This document shows, piece by piece, positions 1-5,697 of a stretch of 5,697 bases of DNA. Origin of the DNA: a virus (Duplodnaviria; Heunggongvirae; Uroviricota; Caudoviricetes); the IMG/VR virus record IMGVR_UViG_3300026224_000013, positions 1 through 5,697 of that record. One strand, 5' to 3'. Each line of letters begins with the position of its first letter. Position 1 is the stretch's first letter. The notes beneath the pieces are model-generated. The model worked only from the letters and a program-made list of their open reading frames with translations, was not told where the DNA came from and searched no databases. The position numbers and the translations under genes are program-made.

Positions 1-171
1 TCTGAGACAACATCTGGCAAGGCTGGGACGGAAGTCACTGTCGTTCTCAAAATCGGTGGAGCTGCATGACAAAGTCATCGGGCATTATCTGAACATAAAA
101 CACTATCAATAAGTTGGAGTCATTACCCTGTTATTGATGATGATATTGACAATAAGATTTATGCCTATGCT

Positions 172-897
172 ATGAATAACGCGATATCGTTTTCAAAAGT
201 TATTAATAACGATATAAAGAATGATAAGCCAGTTGTACTTACCTCTCTTGCTGAGGTTCAGAATGATTTGTGGGCCTATTGTATTAAAGTCCAAAAGGGG
301 GCTGACGTCACTTATTCTTTCCGAAAAATCAGCAGGGGGAAAGTCACAACAAATGAACCACAAAATATGACTCAGCGCGTATTCGCTTTGTTTGATAAAA
401 CAGATAAAGAGTTAAGATCATTTGATGGCAGCGCAGTCAATTTTGATGACAAAATCGATTGTATTTATATAAAAGATCAATTTTATGTATTTCATAAGAA
501 AAGTTTTGAGGCTATTGTAGGCTTGGAGGTTGAGTTTACAGAAGCTGCACAAAAAACATTAAATACAATTAAAGAACTTGATCTTATTGAAGGTTTAGAT
601 GTTATTGAACAAGCTATTCTTCATAAGCCATCACTGAGAAAAATTCTCACTCATATCGCTGAGAAAGGTAACCATACGGCTCTGGAAAAGAATGATGTTC
701 AAGCTATGAATGATGTGTTAAAAATGTTTCAGAACGAAGAGTTTAAGACCAATGAGCATGGTAAATTAGTCATAGAAGATGAGAGGCAAGGAAGAAACTT
801 TCTCAAACTGTTAAATGATTATTATAAACAAGGCATGACTACAAAAAAATACTATGGTACGGATAGCGGAAATGTGATTAACCCTATTAAGGCGTAA
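172..897 (+). CDS. Hypothetical protein, 241 aa, AT-rich orphan ORF (candidate moron/accessory gene; function unknown)
   Basis: Uninterrupted ATG-initiated ORF of 726 nt. Composition is strikingly AT-rich (about 28-30% GC by eye) against roughly 50% GC in the phage genes downstream. Product is Lys/Asn/Asp/Glu-rich with no transmembrane segment and no catalytic motif I can recognise (no Walker A, no HxH/HExxH). No obvious Shine-Dalgarno sequence. Confidence 0.65.
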   Translation: MNNAISFSKVINNDIKNDKPVVLTSLAEVQNDLWAYCIKVQKGADVTYSFRKISRGKVTTNEPQNMTQRVFALFDKTDKELRSFDGSAVNFDDKIDCIYIKDQFYVFHKKSFEAIVGLEVEFTEAAQKTLNTIKELDLIEGLDVIEQAILHKPSLRKILTHIAEKGNHTALEKNDVQAMNDVLKMFQNEEFKTNEHGKLVIEDERQGRNFLKLLNDYYKQGMTTKKYYGTDSGNVINPIKA

Positions 898-1096
898 AGC
901 ATATACTATATCTGGAACTGAAATACCAGCCGCCATCAGAAAGAACTGATGGGGCTTACAAATAGTAAGTAAATATAAAATGTTAAGGTATTTTTCATGC
1001 AAAAATGAAAATCATTGGCACAAATTAGAAACTAAGTAAATTGCTAATACTAATAACTTATTATTCTACTTACTATTTGCATGGAGTTGTTGTGAA

Positions 1097-1130
1097 TTGC
1101 TGGAAAGGTGGGTAATGTTTTTGTAGAATC
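1097..1130 (+). promoter_or_regulatory. Candidate promoter of the hok/mok mRNA
   Basis: TGTAGAAT (TG plus TAGAAT -10 at 1124-1129) with a weak -35 (TGGAAA, 1101-1106). The predicted start region just downstream, GGCGGGTGCTTGAGGCTATCTGCCTC, resembles the 5' leader of plasmid R1 hok mRNA as I recall it. Confidence 0.4.
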
Positions 1131-1182
1131 ACGGCGGGTGCTTGAGGCTATCTGCCTCGGGCACGAACACCAAAGGCAGATA

Positions 1183-1256
1183 GAGAAAAGCCCCAGTTAA
1201 CATTACGCGTCCGGCAAGACGCTTAACATTAATCTGAGGCCAATTTCATGCTTTGC
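1183..1256 (-). ncRNA. sok: Candidate Sok-type antisense RNA (antitoxin of the hok module)
   Basis: Minus-strand promoter-like elements: -35 TTGCCT (complement of 1286-1291), 17-nt spacer, -10 TAACCT (complement of 1263-1268), placed antisense over the mok start and leader as in hok/sok of R1. The minus-strand transcript can form a stem (GGCCUCAG/CUGGGGC with one G-U) ending in a U-rich tract (cttttctct). Exact ends are approximate. Confidence 0.45.
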
Positions 1257-1460
1257 ACATGTAGGTTAGCCTCTTACGTGCCGAAAGGCAAGGAGAAGCA
1301 GGCTATGAAGCAGCAAAAGGCGATGTTAATCGCCCTGATCGTCATCTGTTTAACCGTCATTGTGACGGCACTGGTAACGAGGAAAGACCTCTGCGAGGTA
1401 CGAATCCGAACCGGGCAGACGGAGGTCGCTGTCTTCGTAGACTACGAATCTAGAGAGTAA
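1248..1460 (+). CDS. mok: Mok-like in-frame leader/regulatory ORF overlapping hok (70 aa)
   Basis: ATG at 1248 is in frame with hok and adds 19 N-terminal residues (MLCTCRLASYVPKGKEKQA). This resembles the in-frame MokC extension of chromosomal HokC as I recall it. Translation of this frame is inferred by analogy only. Confidence 0.45.
   Translation: MLCTCRLASYVPKGKEKQAMKQQKAMLIALIVICLTVIVTALVTRKDLCEVRIRTGQTEVAVFVDYESRE
1305..1460 (+). CDS. hok: Hok/Gef-family type I toxin (51 aa small membrane toxin)
   Basis: Translation MKQQKAMLIALIVICLTVIVTALVTRKDLCEVRIRTGQTEVAVFVDYESRE carries the hallmark Hok/Gef/RelF pattern: N-terminal TM helix, TRKxLCE motif, periplasmic tail ending YES. AGGAG-like RBS (aaggagaag) lies 8-16 nt upstream of the ATG. 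Confidence 0.88.
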   Translation: MKQQKAMLIALIVICLTVIVTALVTRKDLCEVRIRTGQTEVAVFVDYESRE

Positions 1461-1469
1461 GAGTGACCA

Positions 1470-1491
1470 GGCGGGAGAGTAATCTCCCGCC
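1470..1491 (+). promoter_or_regulatory. Perfect 9-bp stem-loop in the hok mRNA 3' UTR (candidate fold-back/processing element)
   Basis: GGCGGGAGA-gtaa-TCTCCCGCC is a perfect 9-bp stem with a GNRA-type tetraloop (GUAA), immediately after the hok stop. Hok mRNAs are known to carry 3' structural elements (fbi) that pair with the 5' end. Confidence 0.5.
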
Positions 1492-1530
1492 ACCTCTGAT
1501 GTGTCAGGCATCCTCAATGCACCCACACTT

Positions 1531-1562
1531 AACCCGCTTCGGCGGGTTTTTGTTTTTATTTT
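1531..1562 (+). terminator. Rho-independent terminator of the hok transcript
   Basis: AACCCGC-ttcg-GCGGGTT (7-bp stem, UUCG tetraloop) followed by TTTTGTTTTTATTTT. Confidence 0.75.
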
Positions 1563-1570
1563 CAACGCGT

Positions 1571-1600
1571 TTGAAGTTTTGGATAGTGCCGGAATAGAAT
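1571..1600 (+). promoter_or_regulatory. Candidate sigma70 promoter upstream of the small ORF/DUF1367/YbcO/Q-like gene block
   Basis: -35 TTGAAG (1571-1576), 18-nt spacer, -10 TAGAAT (1595-1600). Sequence-only prediction. Confidence 0.3.
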
Positions 1601-1682
1601 CAAAAATACTTAAGTAGCGCGCAGGGAGAAGAGGGATGGACCCCGAACAGGGGAGTGCTATTTATCTGGAAGGATTCTGAAG

Positions 1683-1856
1683 ATGAAAATCGAAGAATTG
1701 CGTGAAATTTTTAGTGAAGATGGCCTCTATGCTGTGCGCGTTGAGAATGGAGAAGTTATCTACACAACGTTAATTCCTGATGATCATGTGATTTTATCTA
1801 TCGAGGCATTCATTGAATACCTTGAAAGGCTCGGTTTCAAGGTGGTTCGCGAATGA
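1683..1856 (+). CDS. Small hypothetical protein (57 aa), acidic, not in the supplied ORF track
   Basis: ATG at 1683 with GGAAGGA upstream and stop at 1854-1856. Translation is MKIEELREIFSEDGLYAVRVENGEVIYTTLIPDDHVILSIEAFIEYLERLGFKVVRE. GC content and codon use match the downstream phage genes. No family assigned. Confidence 0.45.
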   Translation: MKIEELREIFSEDGLYAVRVENGEVIYTTLIPDDHVILSIEAFIEYLERLGFKVVRE

Positions 1857-1915
1857 GTTATAATTCGTAAGCCAGCCTGAACAACTGGCAACCTACAGCG
1901 CCATTGGAGACAGCA

Positions 1916-2515
1916 ATGGCGCATATACAACTGGTCAAACAAACCTCTTCCGGATTACTTCTCCCGGCGACGCCGGAGAGTTGTGATTTTCTGCATCAAA
2001 TCAAAATAGGCGAGTGGATACACGCTGATTTTAAGCGCGTTCGTAACTACGCATTCCATAAGCGTTTTTTCAAACTTCTGCAACTCGGATTCGATTACTG
2101 GACTCCGGTCGGTGGGGCGATCACACCTCGCGAACGAGAACTGCTGTCTGGTTTCGTGGATTACCTGTGCGAATCAGTTGGTCGGGAACACACACCAGCC
2201 CTGAGTGATGCCGCAGAGCAATATCTAAATACAGTTGCGATACGCAGAACCCGGGATACGGCATTGCTAAAGTCGTTTGAGGCTTTCCGCGAGTGGGTAA
2301 CCATTCAGGCCGGATTTTACACCGAGCATCTTTATCCTGATGGTAGCCGTGGGCGTCGGGCGAAATCTATCGCGTTTGCGAATATGGACGAAACCGTGTT
2401 TCAGCAGGTTTATAAATCTGTACTGAATGTGCTGTGGAACTGGATTCTGTTCCGTAAATTTTCCTCTCCGGAACAAGTCGAAAATGTGGCCGCGCAGCTG
2501 CTGGAGTTTGCGTAA
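1916..2515 (+). CDS. Lambdoid nin-region protein, DUF1367-like (199 aa from ATG 1916; the track ORF begins at TTG 1904)
   Basis: Long ORF with GGAGA RBS 5 nt upstream of ATG 1916. Its stop TAA (2513-2515) overlaps the ATG of the next gene. Family assignment is from memory of prophage genes that precede YbcO-like and Q genes, so it is tentative; the coding call itself is firmer. Confidence 0.7.
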   Translation: MAHIQLVKQTSSGLLLPATPESCDFLHQIKIGEWIHADFKRVRNYAFHKRFFKLLQLGFDYWTPVGGAITPRERELLSGFVDYLCESVGREHTPALSDAAEQYLNTVAIRRTRDTALLKSFEAFREWVTIQAGFYTEHLYPDGSRGRRAKSIAFANMDETVFQQVYKSVLNVLWNWILFRKFSSPEQVENVAAQLLEFA

Positions 2516-2805
2516 TGGTGGACTTACGTAAAGCGACGCGGGGGCAGATGTGCACCGTCAGAATTCCTGGCTACTGCAATCACGATCCGGAAACGTCTGT
2601 GCTGGCGCATTACCGACTGGCGGGAACGTGCGGAACAGCGATAAAGCCACACGATATGCAGGCAGCGATTGCCTGTAGCTCGTGCCACGATTTAATCGAC
2701 GGGCGGGTAAAAACCAGCGATTACACCAAAGAAGAATTACGCCTGATGCATGCAGAAGGTGTTTTTCGCACACAAGAAATCTGGAGAAAGGAGGGATATT
2801 TATGA
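2515..2805 (+). CDS. YbcO-like (DUF1364) Cys-rich putative nuclease of lambdoid prophages (96 aa)
   Basis: Translation MVDLRKATRGQMCTVRIPGYCNHDPETSVLAHYRL...IACSSCHDLIDGR has the size and conserved Cys/His spacing I associate with E. coli DLP12 YbcO. Start overlaps the upstream stop (TAATG) and the stop overlaps the downstream start (ATGA). Confidence 0.75.
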   Translation: MVDLRKATRGQMCTVRIPGYCNHDPETSVLAHYRLAGTCGTAIKPHDMQAAIACSSCHDLIDGRVKTSDYTKEELRLMHAEGVFRTQEIWRKEGYL

Positions 2806-3338
2806 TTTACCCAACGAATACAGGAAAAAGCGGAGAACACCTTCGTCTCACCACGCTGGAAAGTGTCTGGATTCAGGGAAAACTACGTATGTGGGGGCGC
2901 TGGTCGTATATTGGCGGCGGCAGGTCAGGGAATATGTTTAACCAGTTGCTGGCATCCCAAAAAATGACAAAAACAGCCATCAATGAAGCCCTGCGCAGAT
3001 TGAAAAAAGCGGGAATTGATAAACCAGAGTTGGAAGCATTTTTGCGTGAGATGATCGAAGGAAAGCAAAAAAGCTGGTTAACTCACTGCACTGATGCAGA
3101 GGCACTAAAAATTGATAGTGTTATAGGTGAAGTTCTGGCGGATCATCCAGGACTACTAAATGTCCTGAGTCAGCGTTATGTGGGGCGAGGGATGAGTAAG
3201 AGAAGGATGGCAGAGTTATTAAACGAACAGTACCCAGAGTGGGCGTTGATTACATGCCGACGTCGTGTTGAGCAGTGGTTGCGTGTTGCTGAGTTCATTT
3301 TGTATTCACCTATGAGAGAAGCGTTCGATTATGCTTAA
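2802..3338 (+). CDS. Putative late-gene antiterminator, Q-like (178 aa from ATG 2802)
   Basis: ATG 2802 has a strong AGGAGGG RBS and overlaps the YbcO-like stop. The gene is the last before a promoter/terminator pair, the tRNAs and the lysis genes, which is where Q sits in lambdoid phages. Family identity is inferred mainly from position and size, not a recognised motif. The longer track ORF from 2682 is rejected as a 5' extension. Confidence 0.55.
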   Translation: MIYPTNTGKSGEHLRLTTLESVWIQGKLRMWGRWSYIGGGRSGNMFNQLLASQKMTKTAINEALRRLKKAGIDKPELEAFLREMIEGKQKSWLTHCTDAEALKIDSVIGEVLADHPGLLNVLSQRYVGRGMSKRRMAELLNEQYPEWALITCRRRVEQWLRVAEFILYSPMREAFDYA

Positions 3339-3345
3339 AAAATCA

Positions 3346-3374
3346 TTGCAAAATGAGCCACAAACTGCTTCAAT
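3346..3374 (+). promoter_or_regulatory. Candidate late promoter (pR'-like) immediately downstream of the Q-like gene
   Basis: -35 TTGCAA (3346-3351), 17-nt spacer, -10 TTCAAT (3369-3374), about 60 nt upstream of a strong intrinsic terminator. This matches the pR'-to-tR' short-transcript layout of lambdoid phages. Weak consensus match. Confidence 0.25.
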
Positions 3375-3434
3375 TTTGGTACGCTTCGCAAAGCTGTATC
3401 GCGAGGCGAATCAAGCGCAATTGAACTTTAATAG

Positions 3435-3462
3435 AACCCGCCATCGAGCGGGTTTTGTTGTT
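3435..3462 (+). terminator. Rho-independent terminator (candidate tR')
   Basis: AACCCGC-catcga-GCGGGTT (7-bp stem) followed by TTGTTGTTTCTG U-rich tract. Confidence 0.55.
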
Positions 3463-3595
3463 TCTGCGGTGTTATATAAGAAACGACATTTAATAATCTC
3501 CTTCAAAATAAATTTGTTTATATATTGTCATGTATATTTTAAGTGAAAGTGAAATATTCACATAAAATAAAAACATATAAATAAATTTACATAAC

Positions 3596-3624
3596 TTGAC
3601 GCAAAGTGTTGTTGCGATTGGAAT
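3596..3624 (+). promoter_or_regulatory. Candidate promoter with AT-rich UP-like region upstream of the tRNA genes (alternative pR' candidate)
   Basis: -35 TTGACG (3596-3601), 17-nt spacer, -10 TGGAAT (3619-3624), preceded by about 130 bp of extremely AT-rich DNA (3470-3595) and about 75 nt upstream of the first tRNA. Confidence 0.3.
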
Positions 3625-3702
3625 ATTAAATCGTATCATCGAAAACGGTTCTGAGGGGGAACTCTTCTTTGCTCGGTGATATCGCTCCCCTGAAGAACCA
3701 AT

Positions 3703-3778
<76 letters not shown>

Positions 3779-3781
3779 TAT

Positions 3782-3856
<75 letters not shown>

Positions 3857-4156
3857 GAGAAACAAGCCTTATTGTATTGCGGCACTGGCGTATTTTTTAT
3901 TACGTGGGAGCAGGTTGTATTGAAAAAGCATTCTGTTCTCTGGCTATGATTTGAGGCCGGGTGTAGCCTCAGTGCTGATTTTTTACGGCAGCAGAATGGT
4001 GCATTATCGGTGGAGATTTTGTATTTCCTGGCAGGGTCGGTGATGCATCATTCTGGTGTTGTAAAAGCACCACAGAGGCGTTCCTCAGTGCGAGGGTGGT
4101 TTAAAGAGTCGGTTTAGCGGGAAACCACAGTATCCATACAGAACGGAATACTTCGG

Positions 4157-4182
4157 GAGGCACCCGACGCCTCGATTTTATT
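4157..4182 (+). terminator. Terminator-like hairpin with U-tract inside the non-coding block
   Basis: GAGGC-acccgac-GCCTC (5-bp stem) followed by GATTTTATT. Confidence 0.4.
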
Positions 4183-4212
4183 ACAATTAAAAATTCATCC
4201 CTTGCATTGACC

Positions 4213-4241
4213 AACCGCCTCCACCAGGCGGTTTTTTTTAT
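4213..4241 (+). terminator. Strong rho-independent terminator inside the non-coding block
   Basis: AACCGCCT-ccacc-AGGCGGTT (8-bp GC-rich stem) followed by TTTTTTATT. Confidence 0.7.
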
Positions 4242-4421
4242 TCTGAATTCAGTTTCTTCATGGCTCGCTACGGCGGGCCTTTTTCATATCCGCGCCACGC
4301 CCGGCGCACATCAAAAACCACAGAGCCTTTCAGGGGTGAGCTTACGGGATGGTCAGTGTGACTTTCTCTGTGGGCTGGTCACCCCCGGGCGGAGGCTCAC
4401 CCACTAAAAGGAAAAGTCACG

Positions 4422-4847
4422 ATGTTTGGTATTTTCAAAAAGAAAACCCGCAAGGCCATTACCGAAGTGAAGAAGATGGAGAACCGCGACGCAGTGGAGG
4501 CGACCGTCTGGGGTGCGTATTCCATTGCATACGCTGACGGCACCTGCGACGCGAAAGAAATCGCAGTACTGGAGAAAACCATTGCAGCACTTCCTGCCTT
4601 TGCACCGTTCTCCGGCGAGATTGCACAAATGAGTGCAAATATCCGCGCCCGTTATGAAGCGTCGCCGCGCTCTGCTAATGCTGAAGCCCTTCGCCAGCTG
4701 GCTGATGTTGCCGGTACTGATGACGCAGTTAATGTGCTGTGCCTGTGTCTGGATATCGCTGACCAGGATGGCATTGGTCCGGATGAAGAAGCACAGCTCA
4801 AGAAAATTGCTCAGGCGCTTCAGCTACCGCTGGAGCAGTACCTGTGA
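4422..4847 (+). CDS. TerB-like (tellurite-resistance TerB domain-like) protein, 141 aa
   Basis: ATG 4422 with AAAGGAAAAG upstream. Soluble, acidic, mostly helical-looking sequence with paired Asp-rich segments (AYADGTCDAKEIAVLEKTIAA... and ...LCLCLDIADQDGIGPDEEAQLKKIAQAL) as in TerB-fold proteins. The family call is from pattern memory, not a search. Confidence 0.65.
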   Translation: MFGIFKKKTRKAITEVKKMENRDAVEATVWGAYSIAYADGTCDAKEIAVLEKTIAALPAFAPFSGEIAQMSANIRARYEASPRSANAEALRQLADVAGTDDAVNVLCLCLDIADQDGIGPDEEAQLKKIAQALQLPLEQYL

Positions 4848-4996
4848 AAAGTGCGCGTCTTGTACTGGCTGCCATCCTGCTGTTTCTGGTAGTGGCGGTG
4901 GATTTCACCGGACGCCTGATGTCAGTGCTTGCCGATGGCGTGCTGGTGGCGATGGCGCTGGTCGTGCTCCGGCCTTTACTGCGTAAATCTGAATAA
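4844..4996 (+). CDS. Putative small membrane protein (50 aa, GTG start overlapping the upstream stop), not in the ORF track
   Basis: GTG 4844-4846 overlaps the TGA 4845-4847 of the TerB-like gene (GTGA). Translation VKSARLVLAAILLFLVVAVDFTGRLMSVLADGVLVAMALVVLRPLLRKSE has two hydrophobic stretches and a basic C-terminus. An internal ATG (about 4907-4909, same frame) would give only 29 aa. Confidence 0.35.
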   Translation: MKSARLVLAAILLFLVVAVDFTGRLMSVLADGVLVAMALVVLRPLLRKSE

Positions 4997-5043
4997 CACC
5001 ACACAAAAGGCATCTGCGGGTGCCTTTGATGGGGTGTTTTTAT

Positions 5044-5069
5044 GGGCCGTTGGTGGCCCTTTTTTATTT
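5044..5069 (+). terminator. Hairpin with U-tract upstream of the holin gene (terminator-like or regulatory)
   Basis: GGGCC-gttggt-GGCCC followed by TTTTTTTATTT. A weaker hairpin AAAGGCA-tctgcggg-TGCCTTT (5006-5027) lies just before it. Confidence 0.4.
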
Positions 5070-5083
5070 ACAGGAGAAAAAGT

Positions 5084-5449
5084 ATGTCTGAACCCTTATC
5101 CGGTTCCGGCACGGCTGCGGCGCTCGGCGGGGCGACGGTATTCGGGCTGTTTACCGGAACGGATTTCGGGATTGTGTTTGGTGCGTTCGCCGGGGCGTTG
5201 TTTGTGGCAACGATGCCGCAGAAGATTTCAGCCTGGCGTGTGGCGGCACATTTTCTGGTGTCGTTCATTGTTGGTGTACTGGGGGCGCGTGTACTGTCAG
5301 CCTGGATTGCATCAAAAACAGGTTATGACGGTACATCTGCGGAGGCACTGTGTGCGGTGCTGGTGGCGGTGGGGCTTAATCTGCTGTTCTGCGTGCTGGT
5401 GATACGTGCACGCGGGAACGTTTCAAAAATCCTTTCATTCCGGAGGTGA
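5084..5449 (+). CDS. Putative holin (121 aa, multi-TM, Gly/Ala-rich)
   Basis: ATG 5084 with AGGAG RBS (5072-5076). Three to four hydrophobic segments and a charged C-terminus (RARGNVSKILSFRR). Stop TGA 5447-5449 lies 2 nt before the endolysin ATG. The track ORF start at 5042 sits inside the upstream hairpin and is rejected. Confidence 0.6.
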   Translation: MSEPLSGSGTAAALGGATVFGLFTGTDFGIVFGAFAGALFVATMPQKISAWRVAAHFLVSFIVGVLGARVLSAWIASKTGYDGTSAEALCAVLVAVGLNLLFCVLVIRARGNVSKILSFRR

Positions 5450-5451
5450 GC

Positions 5452-5697
5452 ATGTCGGGTAAATTCAGATTCAGTCGTCGCAGTGAAAAAAATCTGGAGG
5501 GCGTCAAACCACAGCTGGTTGCTGTCGTTCGCCGTGCCCTTGAGCTGACGGAGGTTGATTTCGGTATTACGGAAGGGCTGCGCACGAAAGAACGCCAGAA
5601 ACAGCTGGTCGCGGAAGGGAAAAGCCAGACCATGAACAGCCGCCACCTGACCGGTGATGCTGTGGATGTTGTGGCTTATGTTGGCAGCCAGGTGTCA
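5452..5697 (+). CDS. Endolysin, peptidase M15 family (L-alanyl-D-glutamate peptidase / VanY-like), 5' partial (82 codons, runs off the window)
   Basis: Translation MSGKFRFSRRSEKNLEGVKPQLVAVVRRALELTEVDFGITEGLRTKERQKQLVAEGKSQTMNSRHLTGDAVDVVAYV... contains the SxHxxGxAxD zinc-binding signature (SRHLTGDAVD) typical of M15 peptidases. GGAGG RBS upstream. Confidence 0.8.
   Translation, partial: MSGKFRFSRRSEKNLEGVKPQLVAVVRRALELTEVDFGITEGLRTKERQKQLVAEGKSQTMNSRHLTGDAVDVVAYVGSQVS

Follow-up and report, generated by a model that had tools for sequence, protein, structure and literature searches.

Organization of the late-control region

The DNA analyzed here (hereafter the window) comprises the 5,697 nucleotides of the Caudoviricetes record IMGVR_UViG_3300026224_000013 (positions 1 to 5,697) and is the late-control region of a lambdoid Escherichia coli prophage, with a prophage of E. 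coli W as its nearest match (99.5% identity). The subject of this study is the interval at 3339–3702, which separates the gene of a 178-residue DUF1133 protein (2802–3338), resembling the late antiterminator Q, from two tRNA genes. The gene order runs from a KwaB-like open reading frame (ORF) through hok/sok, DUF1367, YbcO, the DUF1133 protein and the interval to tRNA-Thr and tRNA-Gly, and continues with approximately 350 nt of non-coding DNA containing terminators, a TerB-like ORF, a DUF3927 ORF, a holin gene and an M15 endolysin gene. The RefSeq record carries no annotation from the DUF1133 gene to the tRNAs.

A consensus promoter scan of the window returned 10 sites, compared with 8.3 ± 2.8 in shuffled sequences. 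Since promoter calls from a single sequence are thus not above chance and carry little weight, the case rests on a comparison with approximately 90 related loci, comprising 80 loci from viral contigs, several annotated phages and loci from E. coli genomes; genome counts refer to 5426 complete E. coli genomes. The comparison indicates that the region probably consists of two independent transcription units (Table 1). Unit 1 (3346–3466) would hold a pR'-type late promoter (P1), a Q-loading site and the terminator tR', and unit 2 (~3463–4243) would be a portable tRNA cassette with a promoter of its own (P2). The region as a whole is of ordinary lambdoid architecture. Its novelty appears to lie in two results of sequence comparison, namely the positions assigned to the control elements of the DUF1133 branch of Q proteins and a suggested pairing between a protein helix and a DNA motif; no paper describing a DUF1133 late promoter was found in the literature.

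Table 1. Features assigned to the late-control region (window coordinates; fractions for unit 1 refer to 87 instances of the conserved core)
Feature	Position	Strand	Basis
Q-like antiterminator gene, DUF1133 family, remote phage 21 Q homologue	2802..3338	+	Pfam, profile comparison
P1 -35 hexamer TTGCAA	3346..3351	+	TTG 17 bp before TTCAAT in 82/87
Candidate Q-binding element AATGAGCC	3352..3359	+	Resembles phage 21 Q-binding element; helix-class association
Spacer half AAACTGC, invariant; its TG (3366-3367) is placed as in an extended -10 element	3362..3368	+	Comparison of loci
P1 -10 hexamer TTCAAT; non-canonical, as position 2 is T	3369..3374	+	TTCAAT in 78/87
Candidate sigma-dependent pause element TACGCT; predicted start near A3381	3380..3385	+	TAnGCT in 85/87
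Conserved initial transcribed region	3386..3410	+	Kept across E. coli loci
Intrinsic terminator tR'	3429..3466	+	13-pair stem then U-run, fold energy -17.4 kcal/mol
AT-rich tract, with imperfect palindrome at 3509-3589	3463..3611	.	G+C 0.228
P2 promoter: TTGCGA (3612-3617), 16-bp spacer, TATCAT (3634-3639)	3612..3639	+	Scan and nine lineages
Leader hairpin: 5' end of P2 transcript with bases just before tRNA	3647..3699	+	Fold energy -20.4 kcal/mol, covariation
tRNA-Thr (UGU)	3703..3778	+	ARAGORN and Rfam; 100% identity to K-12 thrU
tRNA-Gly (UCC)	3782..3856	+	ARAGORN; 96% identity to K-12 glyT
Cassette trailer ending in terminator 4213-4233 and T-run	3857..4243	+	Travels with tRNAs at 81-96% identity
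Second terminator, of next module before late genes	4262..4284	+	Scan; fold energy -14.5 kcal/mol

A conserved putative promoter-terminator unit follows DUF1133 genes

Downstream of Q, the related loci share a core with the pattern AAACTGC TTCAAT nnnnn TAnGCT TCGCAAAGCTGTAyCGCGAGGCGAA. This core follows every DUF1133 Q gene examined, save at one locus too short to reach it, and part of it occurs in 1839 of the complete genomes, about a third. The sequences upstream of the core fall into five unrelated contexts, in which TTCAAT is preceded at exactly 17 bp by a TTG. The forms include TTGCAA beyond the stop codon, as in the window; TTGATT including the TGA stop; TTGCTT inside the Q ORF; and TTGCAA or TTGCAT in loci with isrK. 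The promoter that the initial annotation had placed at 3346–3374 is therefore supported at that position by the comparison of loci, and its three components, TTGCAA, a 17-bp spacer and TTCAAT, are all present in the sequence. The strong terminator proposed about 60 nt further downstream is likewise found, as a hairpin with a T-run; the core stem AACCCGC/GCGGGTT lies at 3435–3454, and 60 nt separate it from the end of the -10 hexamer. This terminator was missed by our consensus scan, we think because greedy extension of the stem consumed the T-run.

In the class d loci, Q is followed by the Rfam family isrK, c4-a1b1 targets and C4 antisense RNA, and the core lies intact approximately 0.9 kb further downstream (isrK-type loci L031 2076–2274, L034 3075–3273 and L046 3088–3275). 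The intervening stretch looks like an inserted ImmI antirepressor module of P1 type (P1 here not being the promoter). An antirepressor gene is part of the isrK/C4 module of Gifsy-1 as well (PMC4825925), and, as in the antQ-isrK locus of Gifsy-1 described in the same report, the relatives of the window Q in class d loci precede isrK. Because unit 1 accompanies every DUF1133 Q gene examined, even across the 0.9-kb module, and unit 2 accompanies the tRNAs, P1 rather than P2 is the probable late promoter. The initial annotation had considered the choice between the two undecidable from sequence; the related loci favor the first.

The spacer half next to the -10 hexamer, AAACTGC, is invariant over all Q specificity classes in E. 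coli, and Klebsiella loci carry AAACTGC or AAAGTGC. The aligned -10 hexamer is canonical in distant relatives, namely TATCTT in Rac-SA53 and TAGTTT in Providencia. The TG dinucleotide is found exactly in those relatives whose -10 hexamer has no A at position 2 (E. coli and Klebsiella), whereas relatives with a canonical hexamer lack it. This distribution reads as compensation by an extended -10 element for the T at position 2. The hexamer spacing, together with a 2-bp shift relative to phage 21, would place the P1 start near A3381. TACGCT, just past the promoter, may serve as the -10-like, promoter-proximal element at which pausing is predicted. TAnGCT was also considered as the true -10 hexamer of P1 and rejected, because neither a -35 hexamer nor a TG is kept at the right distance from it.

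Within the initial transcribed region (3386–3410), AAGCTG is kept as far as Providencia and Edwardsiella, and the conserved first ~30 nt of the P1 transcript may be part of the pause signal. A hairpin at 3382–3408 was rejected as a selected RNA structure, because its pairs are broken without compensation in several variants. Further downstream, at least four unrelated hairpins serve as tR' among the relatives. The T-run lies 65–75 nt past TAnGCT in nearly all of them, and these interchangeable terminators thus yield a predicted RNA of ~75–85 nt each time. The terminator stands ahead of the late genes, with the holin and endolysin genes downstream. In an Rfam scan of the window, neither the P1 transcript nor the P2 leader nor the AT-rich tract was convincingly placed in any family; the top match for the interval, Trp_leader, reached 22 bits where the gathering score is 41 (E 0.5, chance level).

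The DUF1133 protein is a remote homologue of phage 21 Q

Pfam assigns the 178-residue protein to DUF1133 (E 1e-101) and, more weakly, to Phage_antitermQ (E 5e-7). The structures of the phage 21 antiterminator Q21 (6jnx and 6p18) were matched by the DUF1133 protein alone (E 2e-4), and a profile built from 27 homologues of the Q-like protein matched 6p18/6jnx in the PDB with E 4e-5. Profile-profile comparison with hhalign gave a probability of 94.8% and E 4.9e-8 over 135 columns, in which residues 14–179 of the alignment match residues 6–153 of Q21, nearly the full length. A gene of the Q family thus lies upstream of the late cassette.

The loop at residues 105–121 of Q21 is that of a helix-turn[loop]-helix motif, whose second helix touches base edges in the major groove (bioRxiv 10.1101/651190). 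The profile alignment shows a 13-residue gap in the DUF1133 protein opposite part of this loop, which in Q21 connects B1 and B2. In Q21 the loop touches the minor groove and a second protomer, whereas the DUF1133 protein lacks ~13 of the residues aligned to it. Conversely, the DUF1133 protein carries ~28 additional residues near positions 40–75 compared with Q21.

The layout agrees with the mapped late promoter of phage 21

The phage 21 record OL657228, which cites the structural papers, lists a -35 hexamer TTGACA, two Q-binding elements (QBEs) in the spacer, QBEu ATTGAGCA and QBEd AATGAGCA, a -10 hexamer AACACT and the start. These are followed by the sigma-dependent pause element TAAGCTG, the terminator, tRNA-Asn, tRNA-Thr and the lysis genes. 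The window shares with phage 21 the order of Q, promoter, short transcript, terminator, two tRNA genes and lysis genes, as well as a non-canonical -10 hexamer, a 17-bp spacer with a TGAGC motif and a TAnGCT just past the start. The distance from the start of the upstream TGAGC to the pause element is 26 nt in both, from 3354 to 3380 in the window and from 1994 to 2020 for QBEu in the phage 21 locus (L086). This alignment with a characterized lambdoid pR', which the initial annotation had suggested as a check, agrees with the first promoter. The proposal that unit 1 is a pR'/tR'-type short-transcript unit acted on by Q is likewise supported, as the unit both accompanies DUF1133 Q genes and shares the phage 21 layout.

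Several differences accompany these similarities. The position of the downstream subsite of phage 21 is occupied in the window by the invariant AAACTGC, and the promoter hexamers lie 2 bp nearer the pause element than in phage 21. The transcript is predicted to be ~80 nt long, compared with ~45–50 nt in phage 21. The window has ~240 bp with a second promoter between tR' and the tRNAs, whereas in phage 21 the first tRNA directly follows the T-run, so that an internal promoter seems to be an optional part of the architecture.

More distant DUF1133 loci keep variants of the same arrangement. Rac-SA53 reads TTGATT-17-TATCTT-5-TAAGAT, followed by GCCGTT as in phage 21; Klebsiella reads TTGCAA-17-TTGAAT-5-TAGGCT, which overlaps the Q stop codon; and Providencia reads TTGACT-18-TAGTTT-5-TATGCT. 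In Edwardsiella, TTACC stands 26 nt before TACGCT, and the promoter hexamers are spaced differently. Counted by hand, the 26-nt distance from motif to pause element is kept in Providencia, Edwardsiella and Rac-SA53, with other motifs in place of TGAGC.

A candidate Q-binding element varies with a helix of the Q protein

The candidate element AATGAGCC agrees with QBEd of phage 21, AATGAGCA, at 7 of 8 positions, and one related locus (L024) carries AATGAGCA exactly. To each aligned Q protein a helix class was assigned, defined by the segment, the predicted recognition helix, that aligns opposite the Q21 helix following the 105–121 loop. In 88 of 88 loci, the helix class is tied to a single motif in the upstream spacer half, and no motif is common to two classes. 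Class TCRRRV, to which the window belongs, pairs with A(A/G)TGAGC(C/A) (21 loci); TCEKRI with T(C/T)TTACG(C/T), or CTTTACGC in Rac-SA53 (31 loci); TCERRI with TTTGACG(T/C) (18 loci); and TCRNRI or TRRNRI with TTTTAGCC, and once with TTTTGCCA (14 loci). The remaining four are single loci with pairs of their own, from an E. coli-type viral contig (L075), one Klebsiella phage, Providencia and Edwardsiella. Despite an overall identity of only 63%, Klebsiella phage 1 LV-2017 falls into the helix class of the window. Q21 itself (TCRREV with TGAGCA) fits the class of the window (TCRRRV with TGAGCC).

These pairs suggest a read-out by two or three recognition-helix residues in which TC-RR-R would specify TGAGC, TC-EK-R TTACG, TC-ER-R TGACG, TC-RN-R TTAGC and T(Y/H)Q(D/N)R TTACC. 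The downstream spacer half, AnAAACTGC, is constant across the Q classes, so that a second subsite of the Q21 style is not evident. A Q21-type loading site with two direct 8-bp QBE repeats was accordingly not recognized in the window, where AAACTGC takes the second place. We consider, tentatively, that the DUF1133 antiterminators may form a loop-less branch of the Q21 group, which would load through a single subsite 26 nt upstream of the pause element and read this subsite with the helix residues; on balance the question is finely poised and leans slightly towards doubt.

Unit 2 is a tRNA cassette with a predicted promoter and terminator of its own

The second promoter of the initial annotation is retained, but its position moves by 16 bp, from 3596–3624 to 3612–3639. 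The elements originally read as TTGACG-17-TGGAAT are not conserved: TTGACG (3596–3601) is absent in four relatives (L093, L094, L045 and L029), and TGGAAT has no A at position 2; nor did the consensus scan call this pair. By contrast with P1, TTGCGA-16-TATCAT was called by the consensus scan. In ungapped anchoring of nine lineages, TTG and TAnnAT are each present in all nine at a fixed 16-bp spacing, with unrelated spacers, and the pattern reads TTG(A/C)(A/G)(A/C), 16 nt, TA(T/A)(T/C)AT, 6–7 nt and a conserved CGGTTC. The P2 transcript would start near 3645–3647. Its first bases, 3647–3660, pair with 3686–3699 to form the leader helix. In an alignment of ten sequences, 92.4% of the cells pair, whereas slid partners reach 30–77%; changes affect both sides in four pairs, and RNAalifold recovers the identical helix. 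The ten sequences are related, and the covariation lends the helix moderate support.

The stretch carried along with the tRNAs stops at 4243, which is the end of the 4213–4233 terminator (-12.1 kcal/mol, eight T). The next terminator, at 4262, is present without the cassette in L018–L025. The 240 bp between tR' and the tRNAs were found in 205 of the 5426 genomes and in one phage record, vB_EcoS-683R6; a search of the phage collection with the P2 region of the window gave no similarity except to this phage. Divergent upstream regions precede the same Thr-Gly pair in L045, L029, L033, L046, L092–L094 and the second copy in SerU-LTIIb (L004). A DNA methylase gene, rather than tR', precedes the cassette in four of these (L029, L033, L094 and the second SerU-LTIIb copy). 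These different contexts, with promoter and terminator retained, point to an autonomous, moron-like tRNA transcription unit. They also favor the proposal of the initial annotation that the second promoter could drive the tRNAs independently, since P2 travels with the tRNAs, also away from Q.

The host thrU-tyrU-glyT-thrT-tufB promoter resembles P2 in having AT-rich DNA upstream. It differs in its leader of ~10 nt, compared with ~57 nt and a conserved hairpin in the cassette, which also lacks tyrU and thrT. An origin of P2 and the AT-rich tract from the host thrU promoter was rejected, as the similarity begins only 2 nt before the tRNA. The identity of tRNA-Thr to thrU extends over these 2 nt, and the host tyrU with its intergenic spacer is missing from the cassette, which suggests that the tRNAs were captured from the host operon and that a deletion followed.

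Differential RNA sequencing of the EHEC Stx2a phage Sp5 mapped a primary transcript start between tR' and the tRNAs, which was interpreted as a tRNA promoter (Sy et al. 2020, PMC7547250); we propose a similar arrangement for P2. Sp5 differs from the window in its type of Q and in its pR' transcript, which has 258 nt. Its tRNAs are the ileZ/argN/argO set, unlike those of the window. In three relatives (L009, L034 and L061), two extra tRNA genes precede the Thr-Gly pair, and TTGCAG-17-TATTAT stands before the first of them, ~150–160 nt upstream of the pair. An internal tRNA promoter after tR' may be common in such prophages.

The trailer at 4048–4243 gives a weak match to STnc100 (20 bits, E 0.37), and the related locus L064 has a full STnc100 match of 86.6 bits. 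The trailer may represent a small-RNA gene that has diverged and whose end is the 4213 terminator.

The AT-rich tract upstream of P2

The extreme AT-richness reported for 3470–3595 is borne out, with a G+C content of 17.5% compared with 46.4% for the whole window. Low G+C (0.16–0.28) is found upstream of P2 in all nine lineages, and the sequence itself is not kept. Of the direct repeat noted earlier, GTGAAAGTGAAA is present at 3543–3554; close relatives do not retain the GTGAAA repeat, and its counterparts there are GTGAAAGTGAAT in E. coli W, GTGAAAGTAAAT in L007 and AATGAAGGTGAAA in L073. The tract contains an imperfect palindrome of ~81 bp (3509–3589), whose 23-nt arms are 83% complementary and whose inner 13-nt arms are 92% complementary (fold z -2.8 as RNA and -2.5 as DNA). 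Its interpretation as a conserved RNA or DNA structure, such as an RNase III site, was rejected, because L007 has it only in disrupted form and divergent cassettes lack it. Most lineages (L045, L046, L092–L094 and L004) share, between differing flanks, the TTTAC(A) that the window has at 3585–3590, ~22 nt ahead of the P2 -35 hexamer; 29 bp upstream, the window contains a second TTTAC-like copy, ATTCACATAA. The tract ends ~55 nt upstream of the predicted P2 start and is followed by CTTGACGCAAAGTGTTG before the -35 hexamer. Its most likely role, plausible and the weakest step of our interpretation, is that of an upstream activating or nucleoid-protein region.

Alternative explanations

It might be argued that P2 is the real Q-dependent late promoter and that unit 1 is only the conserved 3' untranslated region and terminator of the Q operon. 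P2 has the better -10 hexamer (TATCAT), and it alone of the two was called by the scan, as the P1 hexamer TTCAAT has no A at position 2. Nevertheless, most DUF1133 Q loci lack P2 and the AT-rich tract (present in 205 genomes, compared with 1839 that have the P1 core), P2 is also found together with the tRNAs at sites that do not adjoin Q, and neither a -10-like pause element nor a Q21-like motif is seen before or after it. A 3' untranslated region would have no need of the TTG-17-hexamer geometry, nor does its placement fit the class d loci, where the core lies 0.9 kb from Q, and the P1 layout agrees with the mapped pR' of phage 21. We consider this explanation very improbable. Slightly less remote, though still improbable, is the idea that the P1-tR' unit is mainly the gene of a trans-acting small RNA of the StxS/IsrK kind, conserved for its RNA and not for Q loading. 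Short pR'-tR' RNAs of Stx phages have regulatory functions (PMC7547250), the predicted fold of the 86-nt P1 transcript is good (z -3.85), and the transcribed stretch 3386–3410 is strongly conserved. However, the 5' hairpin is broken by single-sided changes without compensation, and the 3' half with the terminator is freely exchanged among relatives, so that no RNA sequence is kept past about +30. Rfam, moreover, gave no family for the region above the chance-level match to Trp_leader. IsrK itself was rejected as a counterpart of the P1 RNA, because isrK belongs to the module inserted between Q and the core and is absent from the window. A small-RNA role would in any case be compatible with a late-promoter role, and the assignment of P1 as the late promoter is retained.

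For the AT-rich tract, the alternative is that it has no role in promoter function and represents a recombination scar, junction filler or a site silenced by H-NS. The tract sits where the tR' module and the cassette join, and neither its sequence nor its palindrome and hexamer repeat are kept among divergent cassettes. Against this stand the low G+C directly upstream of P2 in all nine lineages despite their differing sequences, the TTTAC motif kept in most of them and the AT-rich DNA that host tRNA promoters such as thrU likewise have upstream. This alternative appears less probable than a role in P2 activity, but it has appreciable weight.

Some results tell against our interpretation and are taken together here. 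The consensus scan missed P1, whose TTCAAT has no A at position 2, where A is nearly universal. An AlphaFold prediction of the Q protein from the 27-sequence alignment reached a mean predicted local distance difference test (pLDDT) score of 55.6; as this model is too poor for a fold search, the profile comparison was used in its place. The association of helix and motif is confounded by linkage, as in most loci less than 100 bp separate the 3' end of Q from the spacer. The helix class can also be predicted in part from the -35 hexamer, from the downstream spacer half and from the terminator type, with a conditional entropy of 0.44–0.57 bit compared with 0.08 for the motif. A single TGAGC-like subsite is visible, versus the two used by Q21. 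The AT-rich tract lies upstream of the usual position of an UP element (-40 to -60), and CTTGACGCAAAGTGTTG, which P2 has at -38 to -56, is not AT-rich, so that the earlier suggestion of a UP element is not supported in its canonical form. The suggested check for IHF sites gave no exact match in the tract, the single match to the consensus WATCAANNNNTTR lying outside the region, and an exact FIS-like pattern had no match in the tract either; both patterns capture degenerate sites poorly.

Neighboring defense and toxin-antitoxin genes

Upstream of the Q operon lie a hok/sok toxin-antitoxin locus at 1136–1460 (Rfam sok, 113 bits) and, at 172–897, the KwaB-like ORF of the Kiwa defense family. The E. 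coli W prophage carries DUF262 and AAA ATPase genes in place of KwaB.

Proposed mechanism and implications

The arrangement suggests a model for the late switch. Host sigma-70 RNA polymerase would start near 3381, and by analogy with phage 21, sigma would re-bind TACGCT (3380–3385), so that the polymerase pauses ~15–18 nt downstream. Without Q, the polymerase would halt at the hairpin and T-run at 3435–3462 and release an RNA of ~80 nt. When the DUF1133 Q protein is present, its helix-turn-helix would read AATGAGCC (3352–3359) in the promoter spacer, and Q would load on the paused polymerase, which would then read through tR' and the two terminators beyond it, that of the cassette at 4213 and the one at 4262. 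Such antitermination would allow transcription of the TerB-like, holin and endolysin genes. The P2 precursor, whose first bases would pair just 5' of tRNA-Thr, would carry tRNA-Thr and tRNA-Gly and end at the 4213 terminator. Because the polymerase from P2 has not passed the Q-loading site, the tRNAs could be made in the lysogen without leakage into the lysis genes. In the lysogen, P1 transcription would thus stop at tR' and P2 transcription at 4213, which would yield a short RNA and two tRNAs while the lysis genes stay silent.

Genes for LT-II and pertussis-like toxins lie downstream of the same Q family in Rac-SA53 (L087, 2038–2500) and SerU-LTIIb (L004), and their expression is probably governed by the DUF1133-type late switch.

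These assignments place control elements for a very common type of prophage, whose Q protein is labeled a domain of unknown function in the databases and which includes LT-II and some Stx phages. The tRNA cassette would represent phage cargo that can be expressed in the lysogen, with its own terminator shielding the lysis genes. If the pairing of helix and motif is true, the late switches of co-resident prophages with different classes would be insulated from each other, without cross-activation of lysis genes, and the pairs could provide orthogonal combinations of antiterminator and site for synthetic biology.

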